DNA from: Patescibacteria group bacterium
GTDB lineage: Bacteria > Patescibacteriota > Patescibacteriia > CAIXNZ01
NCBI GenBank assembly: GCA_041651155.1
Contig: JBAZJU010000002.1
Location: 89,852-153,851, forward strand
Direction: 5' to 3'
Length of the DNA stretch: 64,000 bases
In this document: positions 8,676-63,665 of the stretch, piece after piece
Position numbering within the stretch: position 1 is the stretch's first letter
How the letters are laid out: every line of letters starts with the position of its first letter
Notes under the pieces: generated by a model
Seen by the model: the letters and a program-made list of their open reading frames with translations, nothing else
Database searches by the model: none
What the model was told of the DNA's origin: nothing
Translations under genes and position numbers: made by a program

Positions 8676-10310
8676 ATGAAGAATCTCCTGCATTTAGGCG
8701 TAAAGTTAAAAGAACTGATAATAAAAAATCAGTTTATTTTGTATCTAATGATTTTTTTTACGGCTTTTTTGGCCTATTTGTGGATTCAGTCTTCACCGAC
8801 TTTTTTAGACCCCGATTCATTTTACCATCTAAAAATGGCCAAGCTTATTGCCGAGCGTGGAGTGATTTTAGATTTTCCCTGGCTGCAGTTTACAGTGCTA
8901 AAGGATTATTACATTGACCATCATTTTCTCTATCATGTTGCAGCCATACCTTTTATTAAGGTTTTTGGAGATTTTGCCGGATTTAAATTGTATACTGTAA
9001 TTTTGGCTACACTGTTTATCTTTTTGTCTTACTGTTTCTTTAAAAAGGAAAAGCTTAAATATGCAGAGATTTATGCGCTGATAATGATTTTTACAGCTGA
9101 CTTTATGTTTAGGATTTCTTTGGCCAAAGCCAGCGCGTTTTCTTTAATCATCTTATTTGCAGGCATATATTTTATTTTTTATAAGAAATACTGGCTTTTA
9201 TTTTTGGGCGCTTATTTGTATGTTTTGTCATATGGAGGGTTTCCGCTTCTGGCGGTAATCACCCTAATTTACGTTTTTGCGCGTGCTTTTGATTTAACTT
9301 TTATTAATAAAATAAAATTCATAGAGCCGGCGCATGTTTCATTAATAAAAAAAGTATTTAAGAATTTCGCGGTTTTTTTAAAGAATATTCTCTCGTGGGA
9401 GAGTGCAAGAATTATAGCCGCCACCTTGAGCGGAATTTTTGTCGGTCTGATTTTAAATCCATATTTTCCCAAAAATCTGAATTTTTATTGGCAGCAGCTG
9501 GTGCAGATCGGGATTATTAATTTTCAAGGCGTGGTTAATGTGGGCGGAGAGTGGTATCCATATGAATTTTTAAAATTAATTTCTGATACAGGAGTTTTAT
9601 TCATCTTTGGGGTAGTAGCTTTTGTCCTATTTTTTATTTTTATTAAAAAGCAAAACGCCAAAAGCATTTTCTTTTTATTGGCAGCCTTATTTTTTTTATT
9701 TTTAACCCTGAAATCAAAGCGTTATATAGAATATTTTGTGCCATTTTTAGATTTTTTCGTGGCTTTTACCCTAGGGAATATTCTTGCCGAGGTTAAAGTC
9801 AAAGAATTTTTGCAGATTTTTAAAAAAGAAAATTATATAATCGGCTTGCTCTTACATTTTTGTTTGATTTATGCGGCTATTATTTTTCCCTTAATAATGA
9901 TGCGGGATGCATATCTGACCAGGCAGAGCTTTAAGGGCGGGATAGAATTCAGCCGATTCTCCGGCATTAGCAAGTATTTGCTGGCAAATTCTCAGCCAGG
10001 ACAAATTGTAATGCAGACTGACTGGGATGATTGGCCGATGTTATTTTATTATAATGATAAGGATTATTATATTGTTGGTCTGGATCCGACTTTTATGTAT
10101 AATTATGATCCGGTGTTATATAATTTATTCGCAGATATAACTACAACAAAAAAAGCAGATGATTTGTATCAGATAGTTAAAAATACTTTTAAAGCCAGCT
10201 ATTTTATAGTGGATAAAGATCGCTTTTGGCTAGTTCAAAATTTGCAAAATGATGGTAATTTTACCAAAGTCTATGAAGATAATGACGGTTCAATATATAA
10301 ATTGAAGTAA
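8676..10310 (+). CDS. GT-C-fold-like polytopic membrane protein, candidate polyprenol-phosphate-sugar dependent glycosyltransferase
   Basis: 544 aa, more than 10 TM helices, acidic first extracytoplasmic loop (LDPDSFYH), large C-terminal soluble domain; immediately upstream of a GT2 Dpm1-like gene. Confidence 0.4.
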   Translation: MKNLLHLGVKLKELIIKNQFILYLMIFFTAFLAYLWIQSSPTFLDPDSFYHLKMAKLIAERGVILDFPWLQFTVLKDYYIDHHFLYHVAAIPFIKVFGDFAGFKLYTVILATLFIFLSYCFFKKEKLKYAEIYALIMIFTADFMFRISLAKASAFSLIILFAGIYFIFYKKYWLLFLGAYLYVLSYGGFPLLAVITLIYVFARAFDLTFINKIKFIEPAHVSLIKKVFKNFAVFLKNILSWESARIIAATLSGIFVGLILNPYFPKNLNFYWQQLVQIGIINFQGVVNVGGEWYPYEFLKLISDTGVLFIFGVVAFVLFFIFIKKQNAKSIFFLLAALFFLFLTLKSKRYIEYFVPFLDFFVAFTLGNILAEVKVKEFLQIFKKENYIIGLLLHFCLIYAAIIFPLIMMRDAYLTRQSFKGGIEFSRFSGISKYLLANSQPGQIVMQTDWDDWPMLFYYNDKDYYIVGLDPTFMYNYDPVLYNLFADITTTKKADDLYQIVKNTFKASYFIVDKDRFWLVQNLQNDGNFTKVYEDNDGSIYKLK

Positions 10311-10315
10311 AGTTT

Positions 10316-11947
10316 ATGTTTAAGGGTTATACTAAGCGAGAAAATTTAATTGTGCTAGTAATAATTGGCACTGCGCTTTTGCTCTCCAGCCTGCCTTATG
10401 CGGTGGGTTTTTTTTGGGGCGGGCAAAATCATTTTCTCGGCGGCAGCCATATGAATTTAGGTGATGTGAGCGTTTACCGCTCATATATTGAGCAGGCAAA
10501 AGAAGGCAAAATATTGGTCTTGAATTTATTTACTTCAGAAACACAAACTGCCATGTATTTTACTCCGCTGTGGCTGGTGCTGGGGCTCTTGGCCAGACTT
10601 TTTAGCCTAAATAGCCTTTTAATTTTTCATTTAGCCAGGTTTTTAGCCGGATTTTTATTTTTATACTTTATTTTTTATTATTTTCTGGATTTATTTTTTA
10701 AAAAATATTGGGATAAAATCATTGCCTTACTTTTAATTTGTTTCTCCTCGGGCTTGGGTTTGTTTTTTAAGCCTCAGACAAAAAGTATAATTTTTGACGC
10801 CAAATATATCTGGCAAAATTTTTCAGTTGACTTGATTATGCCAGAATCAAACACTTTCTTAACTCTGGCCCATTCAGCTCTCTTTGTGATTTCTCAACTT
10901 TTAATTCTTCTCACATTTTATTGGCTTATAAAAGCCAATACGCAAAAGAAAACTTTATTTTTTCTTTTTGGTGTCAGTTTTATTCTGGGACTTATTCATA
11001 CTTATGATATTTTAATTGTTTTGGGGGTCTCTCTTGCTTATTTGATTACTGGATTTATTTTTAGAAAACAAAGCTTAATTTTTAATTTTAAAAATTATAT
11101 CCTAAAAATTTTTATAATTGGTTTGGGCTATGCCCCGGCCTTTTATTATTTTTATTTTATAGTAAGAAGAGAGCCGGCTTTGTGGGGCTGGATAAGCCAA
11201 AACATTACAGACTCGCCTTCTTTTAAGATGTATTTAATTGCCTATGGCTTTTTAATTTTTTTTAGTATTTTCAGCCTGCGCTTATTAAAAAAGCAAAACA
11301 ACAAAAATGTCTATTTTTTAATAGTCTGGGTTTTGACCTTGTTTGTTTTAGCATATTTGCCGCTTTCTTTTCAGAGGAGATTGATTAGCACCGAACACAT
11401 TGCCCTGGCGATTCTGGCAACTTATAGTTTAAGCTGGCTGGTTGCTGAAATTTTAAAAATATATAAAAAAAGATGGCAAAATATATTAACTGTAATTTTA
11501 TTGTTTGTGTTTATGAGCCTGGCAAATCTGTCTTTTGTTGTTACGGTTATATATGATTATATTAAACTGCCGCAGATTTTTTATTTGCCTGATAGTTTTT
11601 ACCAGGCTGCGGTCTGGCTTAAAACAAAGAGCTTAAGCAATGAAGCTGTCTTAGCCAGCGCGCAAAATGGCATGATTTTACCGCCTTTTATCAACAGACC
11701 TGTTTTTTTAGGCAGCGGGCATCAGACCTTGGATTTTCAACATAAAAGAGAACTTTTAGATAAGTGGTTTTTTCAGGATAATAATCAGGCAGACGCCAAA
11801 AAACAATTTTTGCAAAATTATAATATTAAATATATATTTTATACAGCCAGGGAAAAGTTATTGGGTAATTATGATCTTGATAAAGCCGATTATTTGCAGC
11901 AAGTTTACGCTAATAAAGAGGTTAAAATTTACAAATTAATTGATTGA
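10316..11947 (+). CDS. GT-C-fold-like polytopic membrane protein (second paralog-type)
   Basis: 543 aa, many TM helices, C-terminal soluble domain; 4-nt spacing to previous gene and 8-nt overlap with the GT2 gene. Confidence 0.4.
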   Translation: MFKGYTKRENLIVLVIIGTALLLSSLPYAVGFFWGGQNHFLGGSHMNLGDVSVYRSYIEQAKEGKILVLNLFTSETQTAMYFTPLWLVLGLLARLFSLNSLLIFHLARFLAGFLFLYFIFYYFLDLFFKKYWDKIIALLLICFSSGLGLFFKPQTKSIIFDAKYIWQNFSVDLIMPESNTFLTLAHSALFVISQLLILLTFYWLIKANTQKKTLFFLFGVSFILGLIHTYDILIVLGVSLAYLITGFIFRKQSLIFNFKNYILKIFIIGLGYAPAFYYFYFIVRREPALWGWISQNITDSPSFKMYLIAYGFLIFFSIFSLRLLKKQNNKNVYFLIVWVLTLFVLAYLPLSFQRRLISTEHIALAILATYSLSWLVAEILKIYKKRWQNILTVILLFVFMSLANLSFVVTVIYDYIKLPQIFYLPDSFYQAAVWLKTKSLSNEAVLASAQNGMILPPFINRPVFLGSGHQTLDFQHKRELLDKWFFQDNNQADAKKQFLQNYNIKYIFYTAREKLLGNYDLDKADYLQQVYANKEVKIYKLID

Positions 11948-14784: not shown

Positions 14785-14871
14785 GAAAAATCCAAAACTG
14801 TTTGGATTTGTTCATTGAACAAACAAGAAACATTGAAAAATATAGGCACAAAGTGCCAAAGGAGGAGTGAA

Positions 14872-15480
14872 ATGAAAAAGAGTTTTTTGGTAATCGTGGT
14901 AATGGTGATGGCTTTGTCAGGTATGGCCTGCATCCATCCTCAGCCAATTTCTGTAACCCTACATCGCGATGGGCTTAACGTTGAGGTCAATGGCGACAGA
15001 GAAGCGGTTCAATCTTTGGTAGCAGACTCGCCCGCTCTAGATGCAACTCAGGATTTCAGCGGCGGTATTAACCCCGCCATCGCTGCTGCTATTCAGAAAA
15101 ATCCCAATGCCACAGTGATTTATTCGCCGGATCGCGGAGTCACCTATATTCCGGAAGGTGGACAGGAAGCGGCCGCTAAATATCGCGGAATAATTCATAA
15201 TGACAGCAATAAAAACATTTTTGTGGATATTGCGTCAGCGACAAATCCAGGAGTTAAACGTAGTTTTTATCTCAGGGCCAATCAATCGATTTCCGCTGTT
15301 CTTTTTCCGGGCAGATACAACTACACTATAGGGTGGAACAATCCTCAAGGTAAAAGAGTGTTGTTGCTTCCTCCAAGCAGTTTAATAATTGACGCCTTTA
15401 CCCAAAATGCAACTTCTCCCGACAATGGAGAACCACTTCCGTGGACCTTAAGCTATGTGGAAACACCGGTGCCACGCTAA
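14872..15480 (+). CDS. Secreted protein of unknown function
   Basis: GGAGGAG RBS 7 nt upstream of ATG at 14872; signal-peptide-like MKKSFLVIVVMVMALSGMA. ORF track begins at an upstream TTG (14815). Confidence 0.5.
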   Translation: MKKSFLVIVVMVMALSGMACIHPQPISVTLHRDGLNVEVNGDREAVQSLVADSPALDATQDFSGGINPAIAAAIQKNPNATVIYSPDRGVTYIPEGGQEAAAKYRGIIHNDSNKNIFVDIASATNPGVKRSFYLRANQSISAVLFPGRYNYTIGWNNPQGKRVLLLPPSSLIIDAFTQNATSPDNGEPLPWTLSYVETPVPR

Positions 15481-15503
15481 AAAAAGAAAAATCGGCAAAC
15501 TTA

Positions 15504-15527
15504 AAGAGGGACTCTGTCCCTCTTTTT
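15504..15527. terminator. Bidirectional intrinsic terminator between convergent genes
   Basis: aagagggac tct gtccctctt hairpin followed by TTTTT. Confidence 0.55.
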
Positions 15528-15540
15528 AAATTGGAAAATA

Positions 15541-15999
15541 TTAAGGCTGAATAATTACGGTACCAGGCGGGTTTGTACCCGGTGGTTCTGTCCCTGGCGG
15601 ATTTTCGCCGCCAGTTGAAGATCCTGTGCCGATTGAATTAATAATTTGCGAAGTAATAAAACTGGCAATAGCATAGGCGCTCAAAATAATAACTATGCCA
15701 ATAATGGCAGTTGTTAAAATGCCTTTGGCTTTTTTAAGGACTGGTTCCTGGCCTTGGGAAGTTAAATACAAAAAGCCAGCATACAAAATCATGGCAACTG
15801 AGATTATTCCCAAAAGGCCTAGAAGCGTTTGAATAATTAGGGCTGCTAAAATTTGGGGTGATTGCGGAGTTTCTACGCCATAAACTGCTTGACCCAGGTT
15901 TTGCACTCCTCCGCTGATTATGCCGGCGGAAGCTATTTGCGCGGTCAACAAAAATCCGAAGATTATCAGCGGAATTATAGCTATTTTATTTATTTTCAT
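15541..15999 (-). CDS. TrbC/VirB2-like (T4SS pilin-like) membrane hairpin protein, paralog 1
   Basis: Signal peptide, then the conserved module hydrophobic helix-YAGFLYLTSQG-KKAKG-second helix; C-terminal PPGT repeats. Confidence 0.55.
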   Translation of the reverse strand: MKINKIAIIPLIIFGFLLTAQIASAGIISGGVQNLGQAVYGVETPQSPQILAALIIQTLLGLLGIISVAMILYAGFLYLTSQGQEPVLKKAKGILTTAIIGIVIILSAYAIASFITSQIINSIGTGSSTGGENPPGTEPPGTNPPGTVIIQP

Positions 16000-16019
16000 A
16001 TAGCAAAATTATTTATTAA

Positions 16020-16604
16020 CTAAGGGGTTTGCGGACGCAAACAATCATCAACGCTTGCCAGGCCGCAGGCTTGCCAGTGGCCAGTGCAAAAAGGAGTCTG
16101 GCGGCAGCAAATAGCATCAGCAGATTTGTAATAATCATAGCGGGCATTGCAGCAGGCAATGCTGGTGTACATATTAATATCCTGGCTATTATCGCATAAA
16201 GGATTGTAAGCTCCCTGGCTTGCTGGTTGAGCGCCGGGAGATTCTAAGGTCGTAGTTATAAAATAAGTGATTGTATAACCGGAAAAAATAATAATAATAC
16301 CGATTACTGCCGCAGTTAAAGTGTTTTTGCCTTTCTTGATTTTGTCTTCACTGCCGCCAGAGACTAAATAAAGATAGCCGCCATACATCAGGAGCGCGAC
16401 AAAAACAATGCCTAAGAGCGTAAAAAGAGCCATAATTATATTGGCCGCATAAGCTGCCAGAGAAATCTGATCGCCTGGATAAGCTAGCGAGCCTGTTTTA
16501 TTTAAGCCTTGCAAAAAATTAGACTGGGCTAAAACAGGATAAAAATATAAAAATATGCCCAAAGTTATAATTATGATAAAGAGAATAGAAAGATTTTTTT
16601 TCAT
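16020..16604 (-). CDS. TrbC/VirB2-like membrane hairpin protein with Cys-rich C-terminal ectodomain, paralog 2
   Basis: Module ...LLMYGGYLYLVSGGSEDKIKKGKNTL...; C-terminal roughly 70 aa with 9 Cys. Confidence 0.55.
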   Translation of the reverse strand: MKKNLSILFIIIITLGIFLYFYPVLAQSNFLQGLNKTGSLAYPGDQISLAAYAANIIMALFTLLGIVFVALLMYGGYLYLVSGGSEDKIKKGKNTLTAAVIGIIIIFSGYTITYFITTTLESPGAQPASQGAYNPLCDNSQDINMYTSIACCNARYDYYKSADAICCRQTPFCTGHWQACGLASVDDCLRPQTP

Positions 16605-16608
16605 AATG

Positions 16609-17040
16609 CTAGGGGTTAGATTGGGTCGTCTCGGTCGTATTTGACTGTGAACCTTCCAAGACCTGGCTAATAAAGAAAGTAATTGTATAAGCAGCAGTTA
16701 TTATAGCTAAGCCAATTACTGCATTAACTAATAATTTTTTAGCTTTTTCAATTTTGTCAGGAGCACCGCCAGCTGTCATCCATTTAAAGCCGCCATAAAT
16801 AAATAAAATCAAAAATATCATGCCCACCAGGCTCAAAAGAGCTTTGATTATATTGGCAATAATAATGCTTATTTCAGAAGTTTGCACGCCTGCTGATTGG
16901 GCGCTTGTTTCAATGCCCTGATTAGCATTTTGAAAATTTAAGGCAGCCTGCGCAACTATTGGCATCACAAAAATAAAAGCCAGCACAACAAAAATTATCA
17001 GGCTTAAGTATCTTTTTTTAATTTTGCCAAGTCGGATCAT
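16609..17040 (-). CDS. TrbC/VirB2-like membrane hairpin protein, paralog 3
   Basis: ...FIYGGFKWMTAGGAPDKIEKAKKLL... module; 4-nt gap to paralog 2. Confidence 0.55.
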   Translation of the reverse strand: MIRLGKIKKRYLSLIIFVVLAFIFVMPIVAQAALNFQNANQGIETSAQSAGVQTSEISIIIANIIKALLSLVGMIFLILFIYGGFKWMTAGGAPDKIEKAKKLLVNAVIGLAIITAAYTITFFISQVLEGSQSNTTETTQSNP

Positions 17041-17740
17041 ATTCGCAGTAATTATAAGGGATATAGTGAAAATGACAGTGGGTGCCTAGTTTTTCGCATT
17101 CTGACTGGCTGCAGATATTAGTTGCGCCTTGGCCGCATTGATCGCATTTTTCATCAGCATAAAGCGGCAGGCAGCAGATTTGGTTGCCGCAATCAGTAGT
17201 AATGCCAAGAGACTTGCCCTGTAATTGCCTGAGGCAAAAATCAAGGGCGGCACATTGGGCTCCGCCGGGCTGCTCTGTACAGGTGATTCCTATGGCGGTG
17301 CCGCTGCCTGGTTGATTAGTATTTTGGTTGAGGTTGGTAGTATTTGAATTTTGCGTTTCCTGAAAAGAAGGGCCTGACATGATAGAAGATGCGATAAAAG
17401 TGGTAAGGGCATAGGCACCGACTACAATTAATGCGCCAACAGTGGCATAGCTCAAAGTTTTTTTGGCTTTGCCGATTTTGTCTTCACTGCCAGCCGAAGT
17501 CAGCCAAACAAAACCGCCATAAATAAATAAAATAAAAAAAATAGCGCCAACCACGCCTAAAACAGCAGTGATGACGCCAGCTATAATTACAGTATAATCA
17601 GCCTGGGTCACGCCGGCTTCAGTGGCTGTTTTTTGGGAAAAGCCAGAAATATCAGTAAAGCTGTAAGCCCAGGCATTGCTAATTAAAAATAAACAGCCAA
17701 TGATTATAAAAAATAGTAAAAATATTCTTTTAAACTGCAT
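17018..17740 (-). CDS. TrbC/VirB2-like membrane hairpin protein with Cys-rich C-terminal ectodomain, paralog 4
   Basis: ...FIYGGFVWLTSAGSEDKIGKAKKTL... module; C-terminal roughly 100 aa with 14 Cys; 23-nt overlap with paralog 3. Confidence 0.55.
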   Translation of the reverse strand: MQFKRIFLLFFIIIGCLFLISNAWAYSFTDISGFSQKTATEAGVTQADYTVIIAGVITAVLGVVGAIFFILFIYGGFVWLTSAGSEDKIGKAKKTLSYATVGALIVVGAYALTTFIASSIMSGPSFQETQNSNTTNLNQNTNQPGSGTAIGITCTEQPGGAQCAALDFCLRQLQGKSLGITTDCGNQICCLPLYADEKCDQCGQGATNICSQSECEKLGTHCHFHYIPYNYCEYDPTWQN

Positions 17741-17760
17741 GGGGAAAGGTCAATCTTTTT

Positions 17761-18117
17761 TTATTTAAAAATTTGAAAAATTAAAGTGGTTATGGCATAG
17801 GCTGCGCCCAAAACAAGAGCGCCGATAATGGCCCAGGTAATTATTTTTTTGCCTTTGGCCACATTTTCGCCCCCGGCTGAAGTCATCATCATAATTCCGC
17901 CATAAACAATTAAGAATAAAAAAATAGAACCGCTTAAGGCCAAAGCAGCGCCGGCAAAACGCCCTAAAAAAGTCGGAACATCGCCTTGGGGCAGTCCGGC
18001 TACGGTGTTAGCTTCATTCAAACCATATTGGGCAAGAAGCGGGCTAAAAGGCAAAAGCAAGCCAAAAGTAAAAATGTATATATAAATTTTTTTAAACATA
18101 TAATTTTTTAGGAACAT
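17761..18117 (-). CDS. TrbC/VirB2-like membrane hairpin protein, paralog 5 (minimal, 118 aa)
   Basis: ...IVYGGIMMMTSAGGENVAKGKKII... module only. Confidence 0.5.
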   Translation of the reverse strand: MFLKNYMFKKIYIYIFTFGLLLPFSPLLAQYGLNEANTVAGLPQGDVPTFLGRFAGAALALSGSIFLFLIVYGGIMMMTSAGGENVAKGKKIITWAIIGALVLGAAYAITTLIFQIFK

Positions 18118-18142
18118 TTAAGGGGGCGAAGCGCCCCCTTAA
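18118..18142 (-). promoter_or_regulatory. GC-rich perfect hairpin abutting the start codon of paralog 5
   Basis: ttaagggggcg aa gcgcccccttaa: 10-11 bp perfect stem in an AT-rich context, located exactly where an SD would be. Confidence 0.4.
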
Positions 18143-18158
18143 ATGCCTAAATGATAAA

Positions 18159-18518
18159 TTAAGTAGTTGCGTTCAGGATAGATGTAATAACGAAATTGGC
18201 AATCGCATAAGCTGCTAAAATAATGACTAAGCCGATAAGACCGGCCACAATCAATTCTTTAGCTTTTTTAGTCTTGTCAGAATCGCCCATAGAAGTCATC
18301 CATTTAAAGCCGCCTAAAAGAATGATCAACACAGCGACTAAGCCTAAAAGACCCATTGCTACATTTATAATTTGAGCGACTGTCACGCGTACATCTCGTG
18401 TGCCTAGGCCGATATAAGGCTGGATAGTATTCAGGCCTGGCTCAATTGTAGCTGCAGATGCCATGACCGGAACTACCAATAGGCTAAAAAGCGCTAAAAT
18501 TACAGCGAATTTTTTCAT
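18159..18518 (-). CDS. TrbC/VirB2-like membrane hairpin protein, paralog 6 (minimal, 119 aa)
   Basis: ...ILLGGFKWMTSMGDSDKTKKAKELI... module. Confidence 0.55.
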   Translation of the reverse strand: MKKFAVILALFSLLVVPVMASAATIEPGLNTIQPYIGLGTRDVRVTVAQIINVAMGLLGLVAVLIILLGGFKWMTSMGDSDKTKKAKELIVAGLIGLVIILAAYAIANFVITSILNATT

Positions 18519-18674
18519 GTTTTTAAACCCTTTCTTAATGCTTATTAAATCTAAGCATTGAAGAATTAATTATTAATTATATATAAATTGTTAAATTACT
18601 ATACCTTAATTATAATATTTTTTAGGTTTTAAGGCAAATTAAATTAATTTGTTAGTCTTTTAGCTCTTATCAGG

Positions 18675-19451
18675 CTAAATTGATGAGCTGCAACAACAAA
18701 TAGGAACGCCTTCTGGCTTATCAATGCACTCTTTGATATTATCCCAAGTTTCTGACAGGTTGACAGGGTTATTGCAAACAGAAACATTTGAGACGCAAGT
18801 AGCTGTGCAATTTGGGTGGTTTGCGCAAAAATTATTGCAAACAGTTGAACAATTAGTATCTAATAAAGTTTCATTGGTTTCCGGTTTGAGGCGGGCGCAT
18901 TTGTCAGTTGCATTTGGGCAGCTAATATAGGTTTGATTTTGAATATAATATTTGGCAGAATCAGGATTTGCAACACAGCTCCATTCTGCGCCAAAAGTTT
19001 TAGCGCAAAGATCAGGCGGGGTAAAAGTCGTGGCAGGCGTAGTTCCGCCTGTTGAACTTGGGGCTTGTGGAACAATGCCGCGAGTGATGCCTGTTAAAAT
19101 AAAATTAGTTAAGATGTAGCTGCCTAAAATCACAGCAATGCCGATCACTGCCCAGACTAAAACCGTCTTGCCTTTATTGATTGCATCTGATTTTCCTGCA
19201 GAAGTAAGCATTAGAAAACCGCCGTACACAAACATTAGCAAGGCAACTGCGCCAATAATGCCTAAAAAGGCTCGGATAATGCGGCCGATCAAAGTAGCCA
19301 CGCCAGCAGCGCCGGTTAAATTTCCCACAGGACTGACATCAGTTAAACTCACAGGCGCGTTGGCTGCTAAAGCAGCATTACTAATTAATAAGGCGCAGCT
19401 AAAAAAGATCAATAATAGGAGGAGTTTGTGTTTTTTTAGAAATTTCTTCAT
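18675..19451 (-). CDS. TrbC/VirB2-like membrane hairpin protein with Cys-rich C-terminal ectodomain, paralog 7
   Basis: ...FVYGGFLMLTSAGKSDAINKGKTVL... module; C-terminal roughly 130 aa with about 20 Cys, ending CCCSSSI. Confidence 0.55.
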   Translation of the reverse strand: MKKFLKKHKLLLLLIFFSCALLISNAALAANAPVSLTDVSPVGNLTGAAGVATLIGRIIRAFLGIIGAVALLMFVYGGFLMLTSAGKSDAINKGKTVLVWAVIGIAVILGSYILTNFILTGITRGIVPQAPSSTGGTTPATTFTPPDLCAKTFGAEWSCVANPDSAKYYIQNQTYISCPNATDKCARLKPETNETLLDTNCSTVCNNFCANHPNCTATCVSNVSVCNNPVNLSETWDNIKECIDKPEGVPICCCSSSI

Positions 19452-19483
19452 GGGGCTTTTTTAAGAAGTTAGTTTAAAAAGTT

Positions 19484-21238
19484 TTAAGGCAGGCACCATA
19501 CGTCCTCTTTACCACAATGCCCTGTAGAATTTTGGGCGCTGGCTGCTTTGCCTGCTTTGCAGGTTCTATTTTCAGTGCCAGGAGCAATTCCGCAATCACA
19601 ACAGAAATTTGCTGATGTGCCAGGCGTGCAATTGCCAGCGTTATTTGGCAAATAACAACCATTGCTATCTTTTGTCAAAGTTGTAGTTGTTGTAGGCGGA
19701 GCAGGCATCCAAAAACATACTTGATTTGTTCCACAACCTATTGTCCTTGTATCATAATTATAATGTAAATTGTAGGCAGTTGCCTGGGCACAAAGGCCTA
19801 ATTCTGACTGTGATGGCGCTGTAGTATTTGCGGCTGGAGTACACCAAGAATTATCTACTGGATTAACATTTAAACATACACCACCTTGTCCAACACAATC
19901 TCCAGGTCGGTTAACTAGCCAGATGTCGGTACTTGTTCCAGACGGAGTTGAGGGGGCAGTTGTTGTCGTTGTTGTGGCAGAAGTTCCAGTCGTAGATGTA
20001 TTTGTACCGGTACCAATGGCAGTTAAAATAAAACTGACCAAAGCATAACTGCCCAGAATCACACCAATGCCAATGATTGACCAGGTTAATATATCTTTGC
20101 CTTTTTTTACGCCTTCGCCGCCTTTGGAAGTTAAAAGGATTATACCGCCATAAATAACCATTAATAAGGCAATTGCGCCGATAATGCTTAGGATGGTTTG
20201 AATAATTCGGCCAATAAAAACTGCAGCTTTAATATCACCAACACCTTTGATTGGATTAATGTCTATAGTAAGTCCGCCAGTCCCTGAGGGAGCCTGGGGA
20301 ATACGAGGAGTGGTTGTGGAACCAGCGGGTTTTGTTGCCGCCTGTGGATTAACACAACATTTTTGGATAGAAGAAGATGCCGTAGAATAACAATCAATAA
20401 AATCAGAGCCAAGACTGGATTCTCCGGTTGCGCAGTCGCTTTTACATTGGCCAGTGGGTTTGCAAGTGGCAGAAGTTGTAATGCAGCATTTTGGAAGACT
20501 ATCAGTGCAACCGATATCTCCTCCGGAAGAATTGGAAGTATATGCTGTTTCTTGGCTAGTACATGTTTTAGAACAATGAGCGCCGGCAAAATCAGTACAT
20601 TGGCTAGAACCTGGCAATGACGTCCCCGTGCCACTACTGCCAATGGGTTTTACGCAGGCTTTTAATTGGTTAACTTGGGAATCAACAACATAACAATCTC
20701 GTAAATAATCATAACTTTGGCTTGCGGTTGTGAATTGGCTATTCTCAAGATTATATATTGGAATACAGGTGCCTGCACTTAAAGCAAGGTTGCATTCTTC
20801 AGGGGTGCAAGCTCCTCCAGTTGAGACAACACAATCTGGCGGGGTTGGCTGATCAGCTGGGGGATAAATAGGCGTGCAATAGATTGTATAACCTGCGGGA
20901 CTGGTGCAAATATAGGATTTAACTATTAAATCTGTCCAGCCCTGACAAACTCCTCCGTCTGTACTGCATGATTTTACGCAACAGCCTGCATTTTGCAATT
21001 TACAAGCAGTACCTGCAACTACCGTGGGCATATCTTTTGGGCAGGGTACGGTAGAAAGACCAGTGTTTTGATCTTCAAGATAATTTACGCAAATTCCTCC
21101 CAGATCGCCTGAACATGAAACGCTGGAATCTTTTATTGTACCTTCAGGCGTGGCAGTGAAAGCCTTTGCTTCTTTAGCCAATATTAAACCAGAACAGAAA
21201 ATGGCTGTAAAAATTGCAACATAGATAATTTTTTTCAT
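19484..21238 (-). CDS. Large (584 aa) Cys-rich surface protein with an embedded TrbC/VirB2-like hairpin module, paralog 8
   Basis: Signal peptide, roughly 330-aa Cys-rich N-terminal domain, module ...VIYGGIILLTSKGGEGVKKGKDIL..., Thr-rich linker (TSATTTTTTAPSTPS), second Cys-containing C-terminal domain. Confidence 0.5.
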   Translation of the reverse strand: MKKIIYVAIFTAIFCSGLILAKEAKAFTATPEGTIKDSSVSCSGDLGGICVNYLEDQNTGLSTVPCPKDMPTVVAGTACKLQNAGCCVKSCSTDGGVCQGWTDLIVKSYICTSPAGYTIYCTPIYPPADQPTPPDCVVSTGGACTPEECNLALSAGTCIPIYNLENSQFTTASQSYDYLRDCYVVDSQVNQLKACVKPIGSSGTGTSLPGSSQCTDFAGAHCSKTCTSQETAYTSNSSGGDIGCTDSLPKCCITTSATCKPTGQCKSDCATGESSLGSDFIDCYSTASSSIQKCCVNPQAATKPAGSTTTPRIPQAPSGTGGLTIDINPIKGVGDIKAAVFIGRIIQTILSIIGAIALLMVIYGGIILLTSKGGEGVKKGKDILTWSIIGIGVILGSYALVSFILTAIGTGTNTSTTGTSATTTTTTAPSTPSGTSTDIWLVNRPGDCVGQGGVCLNVNPVDNSWCTPAANTTAPSQSELGLCAQATAYNLHYNYDTRTIGCGTNQVCFWMPAPPTTTTTLTKDSNGCYLPNNAGNCTPGTSANFCCDCGIAPGTENRTCKAGKAASAQNSTGHCGKEDVWCLP

Positions 21239-21351
21239 AAAGGTATAAATGCTAATTTACAAATGTAATGCGAATCTATGAATAAGCAAATTATTAAACT
21301 GATAAATTGTTGAATGGCTAAATGGTTGATTGATAACAAGTGTTATTCTTT

Positions 21352-22281
21352 TTATTGGCAAACACCGTTTGAATTGCAAGTGCCTTTACAGATCTCATAA
21401 GCGTTTCCAATAGCATGCGGCAAGGCACGCGCCGCACACTTAGCTCCTGGATCTAGCTTCGTTTGGCAATTACCAAAGTAAGTTTTTTGGGCAGCGACAG
21501 CGTCAGTTGTATCAGTTATACAGACTAAGCCAGTTTGGCATTCATTAAGATCAGTACAAAACTGACCTTCTGGCTGGCTGCCAGCCGGCGCCACGCAGAA
21601 CATAACATTTGGGTCATAATTGCAGTAACCATTCAGGCATTGTTCATTTTTTGTGCAAGGATAACCGCCAATTGGCCGTTTTTTAACACATTCAGCTCCT
21701 GTGCAAAAACAATCATTTGTACATTCAGCTATGGTTTTACAAGTCGTTCCAGTTCCTGCCTTGTTAGTACATGGTACTGATGGTGCTACTGGGGGGACTG
21801 CAGGAGTTTCTGCTGGCGTGGTGCCACCTTGAGTTTGGCCTCCGCCTGAACCCTGGCCTGCTGGCGGAGCAGTCCAGCCAGTTGGCTCTGGCAAGGGAGC
21901 GCATTTTAAATTGCCAGCCCAGTTCCAGCCGCCTGTGACTGCGCTGATAATAAAATTAACGCCAAAATAGGCCAGAAAAACAATCATCAGCCCGACAACT
22001 GAATTAACTAAAATATCCTTGCCTTTTTTAATTTCATCTGACCGGCCGGCGGAAATCAGCATTCTAAAGCCGCCATAAAAAAAATAAAGCAGGACTAAGG
22101 CGCCTACTATGCCAAAAAGAAAATAGCCGAAATTAATAGCGGTCTGAATTATATCGCAGAGCGAACAACGGCCGGTTGAGGCGCAATCAGGTAAAATCGG
22201 GCTAGCTTGAGCTAGGACTAGATGGGGCAACAAGATTAAAGCTAAAAAAAGAAAACTGCTGAAAAAGATTGTTTTTTTCAT
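21352..22281 (-). CDS. TrbC/VirB2-like membrane hairpin protein with Cys-rich C-terminal ectodomain, paralog 9
   Basis: ...FFYGGFRMLISAGRSDEIKKGKDIL... module near the N-terminus; roughly 190-aa C-terminal Gly/Thr/Cys-rich domain. Confidence 0.55.
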   Translation of the reverse strand: MKKTIFFSSFLFLALILLPHLVLAQASPILPDCASTGRCSLCDIIQTAINFGYFLFGIVGALVLLYFFYGGFRMLISAGRSDEIKKGKDILVNSVVGLMIVFLAYFGVNFIISAVTGGWNWAGNLKCAPLPEPTGWTAPPAGQGSGGGQTQGGTTPAETPAVPPVAPSVPCTNKAGTGTTCKTIAECTNDCFCTGAECVKKRPIGGYPCTKNEQCLNGYCNYDPNVMFCVAPAGSQPEGQFCTDLNECQTGLVCITDTTDAVAAQKTYFGNCQTKLDPGAKCAARALPHAIGNAYEICKGTCNSNGVCQ

Positions 22282-22453: not shown

Positions 22454-22800
22454 TTAATTCTTTTTCTTAATCGGGCTCATGCTGGCAAAAATTCTGGCTA
22501 ATTGCAGAGCTTCATCAGCCAAAAGCTCTATTTCATTCCTAAAAGTCTGATTTGAGTGCGAAACTAATTCTAACCAATATTTACTTTCCTTAGCCTCTCT
22601 TCTGCAAATGCCAATTTTATGAATAAAATCTTTTTTTGTGATAGTGTCATTTGCTTCTCGATAATTTGCACCGACTGAACAAGCAGCTCTAATCAACTGT
22701 TTAATCAGCTCGTTATTAATTATATTTTTTCAACTTTTTTGCATAGATCAATGCAATTTTTAGCAAATTTTAAAGTCCTTTCCTCTAGATCGTACTTCAT
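22454..22800 (-). pseudogene. Four-helix-bundle protein (PF05635/TIGR02436, Avd-like, 23S rRNA IVS protein family) interrupted by a frameshift
   Basis: ATG at 22800 encodes MKYDLEERTLKFAKNCIDLCKKVEKI then TAA (22720). The remaining 80 aa of the family (IRAACSVGANYREAND...EAKESKYWLEL) continue in another frame from the T6/A6 run at 22725-22730. Fused length of about 117 aa is typical of the family. Confidence 0.55.
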
Positions 22801-25873: not shown

Positions 25874-28213
25874 TTATTTGGCTACTTTGGTATAGGCAAT
25901 TAATTCTTTCTTGCCGTCTAAGTAGATTTCATTTTTGCCATCCATGAGCTTAAATAATTGCGGATAGGTATTTTGTTTCCAGTAGGCCAAAAGACGAAAG
26001 GAAAAGGTAATATCTTCTCCGGGGCTTACTGTTGTTTTAATTTTTTTAACTGTTTTGCTATCAAGCCATGACCAATCTTTAAACCAGGAATTTGTGTAAT
26101 CAAGATCATAGCTTTTTAAAGCCAGATTAGTCCAAGTTTTAGTGCCGGTATTTTTAAAAGTTATTGTAACTTTTGGCCGGGAATTTGGCTTGGCTGTCTG
26201 GGGCAGGGTATTAACTGTAATTTGGGCTGCATAGGGAGAAGTGACCTCAATAATCTGGTCTAATTGGTAAATTTGGTTGTCATCGTAATTTAAAGTTAGA
26301 GTATGGGGGAATGTAGCTAGGACATTCGGCGCTTTTAATTTAAACTCAAAATTCGCGCTGGAATTAGGGTAAATTATTGTTTCTTGAGGTGGAATATCTG
26401 CCCATTCAGTATGCCACGAATCATTTCTAAAAGGAGAGATATTAGTTTTTTCATAAACAATCTTTAGCTTTAATTTGCTCTTATTCCAGGCGACATTGCC
26501 TGTATTTTTAAATTGGAGATTAACCGTGGCCATGCTGCCGGATGCCATTTGTTGGGCTAAGTTTGATTGGCTTAAAGTTGCATTGTAAGTTTCTGCCACG
26601 GGATTAGTATTTTGATTACAAGTTTGGCAGGCGATTTTATTTAGGGCAATTGAAAAATCTGTATTGGGGAAATAGCCTTTATTTTGCCAGGCTAATGTAA
26701 AATTTTTGGTTTCAGTCTTTTTATCTTGTGGAGGATTTAAGACTAATTTGAATTTGCCAATTTCTCCGGGATATACATTCCCGCCAAGCAATTTAAAAAC
26801 TGTCTGGCTGGAAGTTTGGTTAGCAAGCTCCCCATCTTTATCAGAAGTTAAAGCTATTTTAACAGAATCAATTTTAGTTAATTTATTTTTTAAACTGGCA
26901 TCAGAAATATAAACATAATTATCCTCGTATCCGCGCCAGACTGCCTGGCCGATATTTTTAAATTCTACATAAACATCAGCGGTTTTTGTTTCCTCAATGT
27001 TTAGATCTTTGGCGCTCAGGCTGACAAATTCAGCTGCGCTGGGCAATGGTTTTTGATAACCGCCATAATCTTGCAGTAAGTTATAAGCTAACTGCCTGGT
27101 TTGCGGCAACTGATCATAAATTAAATTTCCCGGACAGGTCGTACTACCAACATCACGGTGGCCAAGTACATTGGGCAAAATTTGGCCATGAAATTCACTG
27201 GTGGCTAAAGGGTCTATATTAAATTCTTGAGATTTTTTAGCGATTAATTTATCCAGGGCAATTTTAGTTGCTTCAGTTAAATTATCAGGAGTATTGCAGT
27301 CTGGTTTATTCTTGCTATTTAGGGCCGTGTCATAACAGCCTAAAATTGCAATGCCAATCGTATTCCTGTTTCTCAAATAAGCATGGCCGCCCACAGTGCC
27401 TTCACCGCCAGCTCGGCCTTCATAAATATTGCCCTTGGAATCAATTAAGTAGTTATAGCCAATATCGCCCCAGCCCCTGACTTTAGCATGATAATATTGA
27501 ATAGCGCGAATCGTTGATTTGGGATCAACATTAGCTTTTTCTCCGGCTGTGTGGTGGATGACAAATTTTTGTGGCGTGTAATATTCTTCTGGCCATAAAT
27601 CCTGGCCATTTGCGTCGTAGCGGTAACTTTCATTAGCTCCCCATTCAGCCCGAGAAATAATATGTAAATCATCATTGTTATTTTGAGTACTGATACGGAA
27701 ATTACCGCTTGGTCCTTTGGTCGTGTCTAAATAGATAAATTGTAAATTTTTTAATGAGTCTTTAGCAGTTTTATTATTAAAAATAAGTTTGTACTGAAAT
27801 GAATCAGTGAGCTTAGTAGGTATCATCTGGCTCATCAAAACTGGCAGGCTGGAATCTTTGCCTTGGCTATCATCGTCTAAGGCCGTTTGAAACCATTCAG
27901 TCCAATTTTCATTTAAAAATCGCATATAAAGTTGGAAATCTTGGGTATTTTGAGACAAGCTTGGGTCTTCCATTTTTACGTATAAGGCATTAAATGGAAA
28001 ATCAGCCTTTAAAATAGGGGAAATGACCTCATTTGTGTCTGTTTTGTTATTACTAGAAATAAAAAAAGAACCATTTTTTCCAGGTTCATTTACTAAAAGA
28101 TTGCCTTCTTTTACTTCAGAAGTAGTTTTTGCGCTAACTAAAGCGAAAATAAAGGCTATTGACCAGCATAAAACAATAAAAATAACCAATTTTGTTCTAA
28201 TTTTAGGTTTCAT
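25874..28213 (-). CDS. Large secreted protein with N-acetylmuramoyl-L-alanine amidase (Amidase_2/PGRP) domain and C-terminal beta-rich repeats
   Basis: Signal/TM anchor; AEWGANESYR...VIHHTAGEKANVD...WGDIGYNYLIDSKGNIYEGRAGG matches the Amidase_2 fold. Confidence 0.6.
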   Translation of the reverse strand: MKPKIRTKLVIFIVLCWSIAFIFALVSAKTTSEVKEGNLLVNEPGKNGSFFISSNNKTDTNEVISPILKADFPFNALYVKMEDPSLSQNTQDFQLYMRFLNENWTEWFQTALDDDSQGKDSSLPVLMSQMIPTKLTDSFQYKLIFNNKTAKDSLKNLQFIYLDTTKGPSGNFRISTQNNNDDLHIISRAEWGANESYRYDANGQDLWPEEYYTPQKFVIHHTAGEKANVDPKSTIRAIQYYHAKVRGWGDIGYNYLIDSKGNIYEGRAGGEGTVGGHAYLRNRNTIGIAILGCYDTALNSKNKPDCNTPDNLTEATKIALDKLIAKKSQEFNIDPLATSEFHGQILPNVLGHRDVGSTTCPGNLIYDQLPQTRQLAYNLLQDYGGYQKPLPSAAEFVSLSAKDLNIEETKTADVYVEFKNIGQAVWRGYEDNYVYISDASLKNKLTKIDSVKIALTSDKDGELANQTSSQTVFKLLGGNVYPGEIGKFKLVLNPPQDKKTETKNFTLAWQNKGYFPNTDFSIALNKIACQTCNQNTNPVAETYNATLSQSNLAQQMASGSMATVNLQFKNTGNVAWNKSKLKLKIVYEKTNISPFRNDSWHTEWADIPPQETIIYPNSSANFEFKLKAPNVLATFPHTLTLNYDDNQIYQLDQIIEVTSPYAAQITVNTLPQTAKPNSRPKVTITFKNTGTKTWTNLALKSYDLDYTNSWFKDWSWLDSKTVKKIKTTVSPGEDITFSFRLLAYWKQNTYPQLFKLMDGKNEIYLDGKKELIAYTKVAK

Positions 28214-29944: not shown

Positions 29945-30467
29945 ATGTATAAGGGTAAGATGAGGAAAAAGAGTAAGAAGGGTCATCCTACGCTCCTGCC
30001 TTCGTTGAAACTTCGGCAGGCAGGAAAACTTCGGATGACAAGTAAAAGGGGGTAAGATGGGATTTCCTTTAGGTAATCATAACAAAAAGAACGATTTTAA
30101 TAAATGTTCGGAAATTAATTAGGTACTAAATAAACTGATAAATTGAACTCATATTTTTAGATACAGACTTAAATCCTTATATAAAATTAGCCTAAAATTA
30201 GTGAACAAAATTTTTATACAAAAGAGGGTTTTTCATTGAATGGGCTTGACATAAATGGTATAATTATAATATAAAAATGCGAATAATATTTTAATGCAAA
30301 TGCCACCTACCTTCGCTCCTTTGGAGCTACGGCAGGCAGGCGAATATTTAAAATCCGAATACAACTCTGCCCCAATTTATAACGTAAAGTCCTCAGTCTT
30401 TCGAAATTCGCAGATTCGCATTATTCGTAGATTAGCATTCAAAAAAAACAAAAATAAAAAAATACCT

Positions 30468-41806: not shown

Positions 41807-42154
41807 CTAATAATACTTTTTTTGTAATGTTTTAACACTTTTGACTAGTATTTTGATTATTTCTTCGATTTCATCTAATAATTTAGATGCTCTTTCTTTC
41901 TTTATTAAATCAGCATCAATTGACATTAGTAGCCAACTTTTGGTCTCCTTAGCCTCCTTTCTTGAAATATTTAAGTAATAAGTAAATTCTTTTTTACTTA
42001 AAGAATTTTTTGCGTGAATTATGTTTGAATTTATAGACGTTCCAGATCGGATTAATTGTTTGCCTATAATAAAGGCGGCCGTAGTCTTTGGGAATTGATT
42101 CACTAATTTAATTGTGTTGATCGCAAAATTGTAGGTTCTTATTTCGGTATCCAT
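41807..42154 (-). CDS. Four-helix-bundle protein (PF05635/TIGR02436, Avd-like family), intact
   Basis: ...FIIGKQLIRSGTSINSNIIHAKNSLSKKEFTYYLNISRKEAKETKSWLLMS... matches the family core; flanked by imperfect inverted repeats. Confidence 0.6.
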   Translation of the reverse strand: MDTEIRTYNFAINTIKLVNQFPKTTAAFIIGKQLIRSGTSINSNIIHAKNSLSKKEFTYYLNISRKEAKETKSWLLMSIDADLIKKERASKLLDEIEEIIKILVKSVKTLQKKYY

Positions 42155-62919: not shown

Positions 62920-63525
62920 TTATTTTTTAACAAAACGAGGACTTAATAAAACGATAATTGCTCCAATTGCTGCGCCAATAGTATCTTGAATTAAATTTAC
63001 TACGGTAGTATCTGTTGTATTATCCAAACCCAAAACTTTTAAGTGCGTACCCCAGGTATTGTCGCTATAATTTTCAAATATTTCCCAGAGAATGCTACAT
63101 ATAATCACTAAACAAAAGGCAATGATTGTCGACCTTTGAATTGGGATTTGCCAGCGCAAAGAAATTACAACGGGTAATAAAATAATGCTTATCAAAGGAA
63201 TAATGACATGCAGAATATAAGAATAAGGGATTCCATACTGATATAATTCATAAAGTCCAAGAGAGCCAAGGGCGTTGGCAGCAATAGCAATGGTAAGCAA
63301 TAATTGTAATAGTTCGGCGGCACGATTTTTTTTGGCCGCATCAGGTGAATTTGCCGAGACCCTGATGAATTTAGGCAATAAGTAGATTGTTAATGCGCCT
63401 ATAATCATTGACCAACCTAGATAACGAACATCAATAAAAGACGGAATCCAGGAGATCGGCGCAATAACCAAGAAAATGCCCGCAGTCAATAATATTAAAA
63501 TAGATATTAATGGCAAACGTTTCAT
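62920..63525 (-). CDS. Hypothetical polytopic membrane protein (about 201 aa from ATG 63525)
   Basis: 5-6 TM helices. ORF track extension (MGPGFESL...) is translation of the adjacent tRNA-like element. Confidence 0.4.
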   Translation of the reverse strand: MKRLPLISILILLTAGIFLVIAPISWIPSFIDVRYLGWSMIIGALTIYLLPKFIRVSANSPDAAKKNRAAELLQLLLTIAIAANALGSLGLYELYQYGIPYSYILHVIIPLISIILLPVVISLRWQIPIQRSTIIAFCLVIICSILWEIFENYSDNTWGTHLKVLGLDNTTDTTVVNLIQDTIGAAIGAIIVLLSPRFVKK

Positions 63526-63547
63526 AGGTGACCCGGCCCCAAAGGGG

Positions 63548-63665
63548 GGCCTTCGGCCCAGGGATTCGAACCCTGGACCCACTGCTTAAGAGGCAGTTGC
63601 TCTACCAGCCCCAAAGGGGAGCCTTTGGCTCTGAGCTATTTACCTCAAAATTAATTTTTAATATT
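63548..63665 (-). tRNA. tRNA-Lys(CTT)-like element carrying two copies of a 24-nt palindromic insert (probable pseudo-tRNA)
   Basis: GCTCAGAG..GGTAGAGC D-arm, ACTGC CTCTTAA GCAGT anticodon arm, GGGTCCAGGGTTCGAATCCCTGG T-arm and CCGGGTCAC 3' acceptor. AGCCAAAGGCTCCCCTTTGGGGCT sits in the D-loop and GGCCGAAGGCCCCCCTTTGGGGCC between T-stem and acceptor; no complementary 5' acceptor strand found. Confidence 0.35.

Follow-up and report, generated by a model that had tools for sequence, protein, structure and literature searches.

The 64,000-nt window analyzed here (the whole stretch of DNA, from contig JBAZJU010000002.1 of the Patescibacteria assembly GCA_041651155.1) carries a conserved chromosomal operon of an ultrasmall bacterium of the Patescibacteria, or candidate phyla radiation (CPR), that encodes nine distinct members of PF18895, the 'T4SS pilin' (VirB2-like) family of proteins associated by name with type IV secretion systems (T4SS). 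The nine pilin-like open reading frames (ORFs), here called p1 to p9, lie consecutively on the minus strand at 15541-22281. We are highly confident that their products belong to this family and that, as predicted from their sequences, each forms a membrane hairpin with the loop inside and both ends outside the cell. What the set builds is a matter of more doubt. Taken as a whole, the best explanation, to which we would give an even chance, is a PF18895 operon whose hairpins, oriented with both the N and C termini outside (N-out/C-out), form a filament with minor subunits that bear ectodomains.

A conserved operon of nine PF18895 proteins

The PF18895 profile (T4SS_pilin; 71 positions, gathering score 26.6 bits) matched all nine proteins with E values of 1.6e-5 or lower and over most of its length. 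Seven of the nine scored above the gathering score (29.6-42.0 bits), with p3 the highest at 42.0, followed by p6 (40.8), p9 (39.4), p7 (34.3), p5 (33.3), p2 (33.0), and p4 (29.6), and the remaining two, p1 (26.1) and p8 (25.3), fell within 1.3 bits below it. Precomputed annotation on the source contig agrees, and the NCBI record already names p8 and p9 'pilin' (MFA5188224.1 and MFA5188225.1, respectively). The shared region is a two-helix module of roughly 75-80 aa with a mean pairwise identity of 35% (range 25-54%) among the paralogs, in which G22, G33, G41, K48, K50, G59, and Y67 are invariant across 18 sequences (the nine paralogs and nine orthologs of a related genome). A hidden Markov model (HMM) of the module matched exactly the nine ORFs and no other in the window, scoring p1 at 99 bits and p8 at 88 bits; given this specificity, the module is not a generic two-transmembrane stretch of low complexity. 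An original prediction, made from the letters of the window, had described nine minus-strand genes with gaps of -23 to 156 nt, a conserved module common to all of them, and hairpin products of the 'T4SS pilin-like' type found in CPR genomes. The ORF listing and a script reproduced the genes and gaps exactly, and the module and the family both hold up in the alignments and profile matches.

Further, the array is conserved as a set. In a related metagenomic contig (L003), the best match of each of the nine proteins is the protein at the same array position, so that the two arrays are 1:1 positional orthologs. The same nine-gene order, with its flanks, is found in L003, L009/L010, and L011, and 8-gene versions occur in the more distant L018, L019, and L020. 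Searches with tblastn recovered a conserved synteny of Amidase_2, NTP-transferase, SBP, the array, DUF2079, and GT2, with flanking proteins that are 51-83% identical. Genomes that hold orthologous arrays bear the names Candidatus (Ca.) Buchananbacteria, Ca. Falkowbacteria, and Ca. Parcubacteria. The conserved number, order, and 1:1 orthology fit nine non-redundant subunits and not a rapidly exchanging repertoire. Identity to the L003 orthologs is highest in the array for p6 (77%), followed by p5 (71%), and is 38-51% for the others.

PF18895 is a large family: an exhaustive search with the module profile returned 76,673 cluster representatives at E <= 1e-3, and in one published report it is the domain that dominates structure clusters specific to fresh water (10.1101/2025.04.23.650224). 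The NCBIfam model NF045849 (Mbov_0395 pilin-like, from integrative and conjugative elements (ICEs) of Mycoplasma) also matched eight of the nine, all below its cut-off of 40 bits. Specifically, p6 reached 39.6 bits (E 3.1e-10) and the others 18.9-24.6 bits, with p9 giving no match, scores that suggest kinship with this family rather than membership in it. The NF045849 protein (Mbov_0395/MMCAP2_0565) is similar in being small, two-helical, and encoded by a conjugative element of a monoderm, whereas that family is ICE-borne and single-copy and the present genes form a chromosomal nine-gene array whose scores stay below the cut-off.

The link to the classical conjugative pilins is less firm. No protein scored above the gathering score of PF04956 (TrbC; 27.9 bits); p1 (16.5 bits, E 0.01), p2 (13.8 bits), and p9 (12.9 bits) aligned in register, and the other six gave no match. 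When the module alignment was compared, using hhalign, with a profile of five plasmid-encoded proteins that carry a VirB2 or TrbC/VirB2 annotation, the match was weak (probability 17.5%, E 0.0014, 59 columns) and in the correct register of first transmembrane helix (TM1), loop, and second helix (TM2). A sequence-profile search of the PDB with the same module alignment returned only spurious cytochrome oxidase helices (E 0.6). The AlphaFold2 (AF2) model of p9, which has hairpin helices at residues 41-76 and 81-116 and a predicted local distance difference test (pLDDT) of 67.5 overall and 70-87 in the C-terminal domain, gave nothing significant in a Foldseek search of the PDB. The sole pilin among those matches was the conjugation pilus of Aeropyrum pernix (8dfu; E 4.7, target-normalized TM-score 0.62, not significant), and one helical hairpin cannot be told from another by structure searches. 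A homology with the classical TrbC/VirB2 proteins is thus weakly indicated, so that of the TrbC/VirB2-type identity first proposed, the PF18895 part stood and the classical part found no firmer footing than these subthreshold matches. We file the proteins under PF18895 and use 'VirB2-like' as the literature's structure-based designation, which is not proven from the array.

These same results could be taken to mean that PF18895 is unrelated to T4SS, being a misnamed, CPR-specific family of small membrane proteins, for example of a holin-like or pore-forming kind or one that handles lipid or wall precursors. Subthreshold links to TrbC/VirB2, structure searches that fail to discriminate, and the absence of T4SS genes nearby would all suit such a family. 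We nevertheless regard it as very improbable, for it sits poorly with several observations. VirB2-like pilins occur in 1,948 Patescibacteria assemblies that also have VirB4 and adjoin virB4 in 1,135 of these (PMC12102498), and the structure-based annotation of the homologs in Southlakia epibionticum makes them pilins inside a T4SS cluster (PMC10633639). The NCBIfam matches are likewise to a pilin-like family of conjugative elements, and the only pilin in the Foldseek results, significant or not, is one of conjugation.

Two other pilin classes were considered and rejected. None of the nine proteins has a G|FxxxE motif in its first 60 residues or matches the Pfam N_methyl family, and two helices follow the Sec-type leader, unlike in a type IV pilin or type II secretion pseudopilin. 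Nor does any of the nine contain the LPx[TSA]G motif of a sortase-assembled pilin.

Topology and cysteine-rich ectodomains

All nine proteins begin with a hydrophobic, Sec-type signal peptide that ends in an AxA-like site, and the loop between the two helices carries 3-4 Lys or Arg residues versus 0-2 in the flanks. The cysteines offer a second line of evidence on topology. The extracellular Cys sets are all even in the window proteins, and in p9 and nine of its 10 orthologs the number of Cys is odd on the N-terminal side (3, 9, or 13), odd on the C-terminal side, and even in total. Such counts can be paired off only if one or more disulfides connect the stretch ahead of TM1 with the stretch behind TM2, which places both ends on the same, oxidizing side, independently of charge. 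In a 13-sequence alignment of p9 orthologs, C33, C42, and C127 are invariant (among others) and C39 is nearly so. Together with the family identity, we therefore consider it highly probable that the Lys-rich loop is cytoplasmic and that the proteins are N-out/C-out, as had been proposed from the positive-inside rule; charge distribution and Cys parity agree.

In this architecture, the proteins resemble TrbC/VirB2/TraA (PF04956; F, RP4, Ti), which likewise have a leader, two hydrophobic helices, a short basic loop, and both termini outside, and p5 and p6 are similarly small when mature (~90 aa). They differ in having no above-threshold profile match, a monoderm host, no adjacent virB3 or virB4, and, in some members, fused ectodomains of 70-300 aa. 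Head-to-tail cyclization is known for TrbC and VirB2; the array gives no sign of it, and a disulfide staple between the two ends is suggested for p9 instead. Disulfides of this kind are in keeping with the published enrichment of CPR genomes in VKOR and an MdbA-like oxidoreductase, enzymes for the formation of disulfides outside the cell (10.1101/335083).

The ectodomains themselves are rich in cysteine. The C-terminal domains expected in p2, p4, p7, and p9 are present and are 71-191 aa long, with Cys counts that run from 8 to 19 and not, as first counted, from 9 to 20, and those of p8 do flank the module on both sides, the C-terminal one (172 aa, 14 Cys) following a Thr-rich linker. In p9, three conserved Cys precede TM1, and the 191 aa on the C-terminal side, with 19 Cys, consist of a conserved WNW..NLKCAPLP..W segment that includes Cys127, a Gly/Pro/Thr linker, and a domain of ~140 aa with 18 Cys. 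Thr/Pro/Gly-rich linkers lie between TM2 and the Cys-rich domains and are consistent with stalks that would cross the wall.

No ectodomain matched a Pfam family at threshold. For the C-terminal domain of p9 there are faint pointers, none of them significant, to DUF7107 (E 0.044), Colipase-like (E 0.077), and, by Foldseek, Draxin (5z5k_B, E 0.09), which weakly suggest a small disulfide-rich fold of the Dickkopf/colipase type. The AF2 model of p8, built on a 4-sequence alignment, had a pLDDT of 38 and was unusable. A word-indexed homology search with the N-terminal ectodomain of p8 by itself (20243-21160, minus) gave no match at E <= 0.01 and missed even the parent protein in the database (P0001); filtering of Cys/Thr/Ser-rich sequence is the probable cause, and we give this negative no weight. 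Both p4 and p8 contain a unit of six Cys that closes with CC, in p4 of the form C-x8-C-x5-C-x14-C-x4-CC; the pattern, written as the regular expression C-x4-10-C-x2-6-C-x8-26-C-x3-11-CC, was defined post hoc and found 6 matches versus 0.4 expected in shuffles. An HMM of the Cys units of position 4 matched other positions no better than shuffles, and all-against-all BLAST of the ectodomains without composition correction gave weak matches only. A Cys-rich unit common to the ectodomains of the paralogs was accordingly set aside as not established, and the earlier statement that these ectodomains are unrelated to one another agrees with the lack of statistically supported sequence similarity by BLAST and HMM.

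Ectodomains and modules evolve at different rates. Between orthologs, the modules are 54-90% identical (90% in p5) versus 32-41% for the ectodomains, which show many indels and changes of size; in p7 and its L003 ortholog, q7, the module is 72% identical and the C-terminal domain 34%. The proteins at position 7 are 258, 353, 437, and 381 aa long and those at position 8 are 584, 620, 456, and 564 aa long. For p8, only three full-length homologs were found, at 34-39% identity. Some orthologs of p9 have an extra N-terminal Cys unit that ends in CCKAK, and a gene for an IS200-type Y1 transposase (PF01797), absent from the window, lies in the same place between positions 9 and 8 in L009 (11236-11706) and L011 (8467-8841).

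One interpretation of this divergence is a variable repertoire that would serve antigenic or host-range variation, with alternative tips on a common scaffold turning over quickly by exchange, gain, and loss. The faster change of the ectodomains, the size changes, the gain of extra Cys units, and the transposase inside the array of two relatives could all be seen in this light, and adaptation to different host strains has been suggested by the authors of PMC12102498. The set, however, does not behave as such a repertoire would. The number of genes, their order, and their 1:1 orthology persist between genomes in which the flanking proteins share only 50-65% identity; the array contains no recent duplicates (maximum module identity 54%); the window showed no silent cassettes, inverted repeats, or phase-variation tracts; and the numbers and positions of Cys are largely kept between orthologs, the p2 ortholog q2, for example, also having 8. 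We have downgraded antigenic variation because of the strict 1:1 orthology and the conserved order, and now think it improbable. The word 'repertoire', used of these genes in the original prediction, overstates their variability: related genomes hold a fixed set in a conserved order.

Operon layout and putative signals around p6

The features of the array are listed in Table 1. From p1 to p9, the gaps between genes are 20, 4, -23, 20, 41, 156, 32, and 113 nt, the negative value being a 23-nt overlap of the p4 and p3 reading frames. If the second ATG (18099) is used, p5 is 112 aa long, which is the length given by the ENA gene call.

Table 1. Genes and predicted signals of the pilin-like array, in window coordinates
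Feature	Coordinates	Strand	Description
p1	15541-15999	-	152 aa; module and PPGT-repeat tail; no Cys; last gene of the array
p2	16020-16604	-	194 aa; module and 71-aa C-terminal domain with 8 Cys
p3	16609-17040	-	143 aa; module and short Ser/Thr/Asn tail; no Cys
p4	17018-17740	-	240 aa; module at aa 44-123; Asn/Thr/Gln linker; 117-aa C-terminal domain with 12 Cys
p5	17761-18117	-	118 aa; short plain subunit ending directly after TM2; no Cys
p6	18159-18518	-	119 aa; short plain pilin-like subunit; no Cys, no ectodomain
p7	18675-19451	-	258 aa; signal peptide; module at aa 46-125; Pro/Thr linker; 133-aa C-terminal domain with 14 Cys, ending CCC
p8	19484-21238	-	584 aa; signal peptide; ~305-aa N-terminal ectodomain with 28 Cys; module at aa 333-412
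p9	21352-22281	-	309 aa; signal peptide; module at aa 39-118; first gene of the array
Sigma-70-like promoter match	18609-18637	-	TTGCCT-17-TATAAT in the 156-nt gap upstream of p6; 10/12 matches in a consensus scan
GC-rich hairpin	18117-18143	-	directly after p6; A/T runs on its flanks; dG -29.4 kcal/mol, z -6.6
Terminator-like hairpin	15503-15525	-	AAAGAGGGAC-AGA-GTCCCTCTTT; after p1, before the convergent ORF at 14815-15480; dG -14.7 kcal/mol

Putative signals of separate expression cluster around p6. The promoter-like site upstream of it is predicted from its match to the consensus, and a Shine-Dalgarno-like GAAAGGG can be read just before its ATG. The hairpin that follows the position-6 gene is present in all seven genomes compared (7/7), with dG values of -22 to -29 and differing stem sequences, and 5 of its 13 consensus pairs have changed on both sides. 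Apart from the terminator-like hairpin after p1, nothing comparable follows the remaining array genes. The p6 hairpin is likely a partial terminator or an mRNA-stabilizing stem-loop, and the promoter-like site and the conserved hairpin would together make up the classic layout of a major-subunit gene in a pilus operon. In L003 (5235-5382), an 8-nt tandem repeat, TTTAGCAA, in 18.5 copies lies upstream of the promoter region of position 6 and could modulate expression of the putative major subunit there; it is absent from the window.

Two genes adjoin the array. Directly upstream, at 22454-22696 on the minus strand, lies one of two genes in the window for a 23S rRNA intervening-sequence protein (PF05635; the other is at 41807-42154, also minus). 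Its product of 80 aa covers profile positions 35-103, relatives there have 120-125 aa, and the gene may be truncated or its start mis-called. On the other side, the ORF at 14815-15480 (plus strand, 221 aa) is transcribed toward the array; its product starts with a lipoprotein-like leader (..ALSGMAC..) and matches no Pfam family. The ORF is a conserved neighbor: L020 has a 32%-identical one in this position, and in L003 and L009 the place is taken by small ORFs on the opposite strand.

Model, genomic setting and published arrays

A model can be put forth from these features. The nine proteins would be exported by Sec and inserted as N-out/C-out, VirB2-like hairpins. The short, most conserved, and Cys-free p6, and perhaps p5, would be the bulk structural subunits, while the other seven would be lower-abundance 'minor' subunits that prime, cap, or decorate the structure. 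Among these, p2, p4, p7, p8, and p9 would hold disulfide-bonded ectodomains on Pro/Thr/Gly-rich stalks and could serve at the tip, in priming, or as decoration, in contact with a host cell or the bacterium's own envelope. Assembly would presumably use a monoderm-type T4SS (VirB4/VirB6/VirB3), as most Patescibacteria encode, which in this genome would have to be encoded outside the ~84 kb examined. By analogy with the essential array of S. epibionticum, the role may lie in an epibiotic lifestyle, as attachment or as a conduit to the host, and not in plasmid conjugation. The likeness to type IV pili and type II secretion is one of functional analogy only: there, too, one abundant short subunit, with its own expression signals on the major-subunit gene, is joined by a conserved low-abundance set, some members of which have adhesive domains. 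Fold and machinery are unrelated, and the array has no prepilin-peptidase motif or N_methyl match. We infer pilus formation and function, and hold the major-plus-minor-subunit, T4SS-dependent surface filament tentatively, at a little less than an even chance.

Several points weigh against this filament. First, as the original prediction had noted for the window, no VirB4, VirD4, or VirB6 is encoded there, and this extends to the 10 kb beyond each end (~84 kb in all), a range that holds no further pilin module either. The array's neighbors are instead envelope genes, conserved across distant relatives, for an amidase, SpoIID, PBP1, polysaccharide synthesis, GT2, and DUF2079, that is, for cell-wall and glycan functions. 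Second, the promoter scan found 32 such sites in the region versus 19 expected, and the p6 promoter is a consensus match only. Third, we know of no characterized precedent for ectodomains of 70-300 aa on a VirB2-type subunit, and they could hinder helical packing. Fourth, the top matches of the module profile are single polypeptides of other lineages with 2-17 tandem copies of the hairpin (P0022, 820 aa; P0023, 552 aa; P0026, 1775 aa); when read through, P0022 and P0023 proved to be continuous in-frame fusions of 8 and 6 modules, respectively. Modules fused in this way are necessarily equimolar and adjacent, which bears on how the unfused arrays assemble and suits a complex of fixed stoichiometry at least as well as a filament of major and minor subunits. 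Finally, the literature states only a 'potential to elaborate conjugative pili' for Patescibacteria (PMC12857230), and no PF18895 pilus is known to have been visualized.

In an alternative reading, the proteins stay in the membrane, either as anchored surface proteins or as a hetero-oligomeric envelope complex of fixed composition in the form of a ring, channel, or patch, with no extended pilus and possibly without a T4SS. The hairpin would then be a unit of anchoring or oligomerization, the stalks would carry the Cys-rich domains through the wall, and the 8-9 paralogs would be present in fixed stoichiometry. Besides the envelope neighborhood, the lack of T4SS genes nearby, and the fused modules, a set fixed at 8-9 members with 1:1 orthologs and the Thr/Pro/Gly-rich linkers after TM2 are in its favor. 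Against it, the hairpin and the separate promoter-like site of p6 suggest unequal expression, as is typical of filament operons; the strict Lys-x-Lys loop and the small-residue positions exceed the needs of a simple anchor; and the homologous array of S. epibionticum lies inside a T4SS cluster and is essential along with the T4SS (PMC10633639). We consider such a complex rather unlikely on balance, if a serious contender. A bolder possibility is that the 8-9-gene PF18895 set is a self-standing surface organelle of a Buchananbacteria/Falkowbacteria-type lineage, in which a VirB2-type scaffold has minor subunits fused to disulfide-knotted binding domains, among them one subunit with such domains at both ends and another stapled across its hairpin by a disulfide, and has been uncoupled from a T4SS cluster and wired into an envelope neighborhood; this we think distinctly unlikely.

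The remainder of the window is ordinary CPR chromosome, with PBP1, RuvABC, GyrA, the amidase, SpoIID, glycosyltransferases, and tRNAs. Outside the window, the 10 kb on each side hold dnaA/dnaN and housekeeping genes; rnpA-yidD, dnaA, and dnaN (L005 1494-4350, ena:ERZ27247363:k141_2778245) lie ~8.5 kb past the window start, which places the array ~25-30 kb from the presumed replication origin; T4SS genes are origin-proximal in several classes of Patescibacteria (PMC12102498). Large secreted or surface proteins are encoded at 42205-44847 (minus), 25874-28213 (minus), and 30294-32648 (plus). They are one of 880 aa with three lamin-tail domains, PKD, and DUF5689, and an amidase and a SpoIID protein, each with N_BRCA1_IG-like Ig domains. 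The region is rich in envelope-remodeling functions. Adjacent plus-strand ORFs of ~543 aa at 8676-10310 and 10316-11947 encode apparently polytopic membrane proteins without a Pfam match. Their products are faintly alike (26% over 137 aa, E 0.003). In L020, a counterpart of the second one stands beside GT2/DUF2079, and both may be uncharacterized envelope proteins of a glycosyltransferase-like kind. A partial Rfam tRNA match at 63559-63610 (minus; 31.4 bits, model positions 9-63), not called by ARAGORN, overlaps the end of the ORF at 62920-63582.

As a type of system, the array is not new, since tandem pilin arrays in Patescibacteria were published between 2023 and 2025 (PMC12102498, PMC10633639, PMC12857230). 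Quinonero-Coronel et al. (2025) used PF04956 and PF18895 to screen 3,035 genomes of Patescibacteria and found 441 arrays, each with 2-11 pilin genes, across 383 assemblies, with within-array identity averaging 25% and reaching at most 54% (PMC12102498). The present locus falls within their definition (at least two PF18895/PF04956 genes in tandem or one gene apart in a Patescibacteria genome), with nine genes in tandem, and shares the low identity among members, here measured on the module; whole-protein identity is lower than module identity because the ectodomains do not align. In S. epibionticum, Wang et al. (2023) found a series of pilins inside the T4SS cluster to be essential (PMC10633639), and a 2025 review describes these six as 'structurally conserved, sequence-divergent VirB2-like pilins' and speculates on a pilus-like conduit (PMC12857230).

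The present array is like these published ones, including that of S. epibionticum ML1, in its PF18895 membership, tandem divergent paralogs, Sec-type leaders, monoderm CPR host, chromosomal location not far from dnaA, and maximum identity of 54%. It differs in three respects. First, the S. epibionticum array is inside a T4SS cluster, whereas this one occupies a conserved envelope neighborhood without VirB4, VirB6, or VirD4. Second, published arrays are commonest in Microgenomatia and Saccharimonadia (PMC12102498), while the relatives of this one are Buchananbacteria, Falkowbacteria, and Parcubacteria. Third, five of its nine members have large disulfide-rich ectodomains, one of them on both sides of the module, a feature not discussed in PMC12102498 or PMC10633639. 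The VirB2 paralogs of Anaplasma phagocytophilum and Bartonella, as they are cited in PMC12102498, are also tandem and divergent and are thought to diversify surface exposure; these are small pilins of diderm pathogens read as antigenic variation, whereas the set found here is fixed, orthologous, and extended by large added domains.

A large part of bacterial diversity belongs to the Patescibacteria, which live attached to other microbes. The T4SS and its pilin array are essential in the single species tested, and the locus described here adds detail for a poorly studied branch, supplying targets for modeling, metatranscriptomics, and binder design. Were the set to prove a self-standing organelle, it would be the first case of conjugative-type pilins serving as modular carriers of adhesins and a candidate for the host-contact structure of CPR bacteria other than Saccharibacteria. 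Short of that, the array refines the published picture and does not change it, contributing a fixed orthologous set, signals at p6 that resemble those of a major subunit, and ectodomains that are candidates for host recognition.

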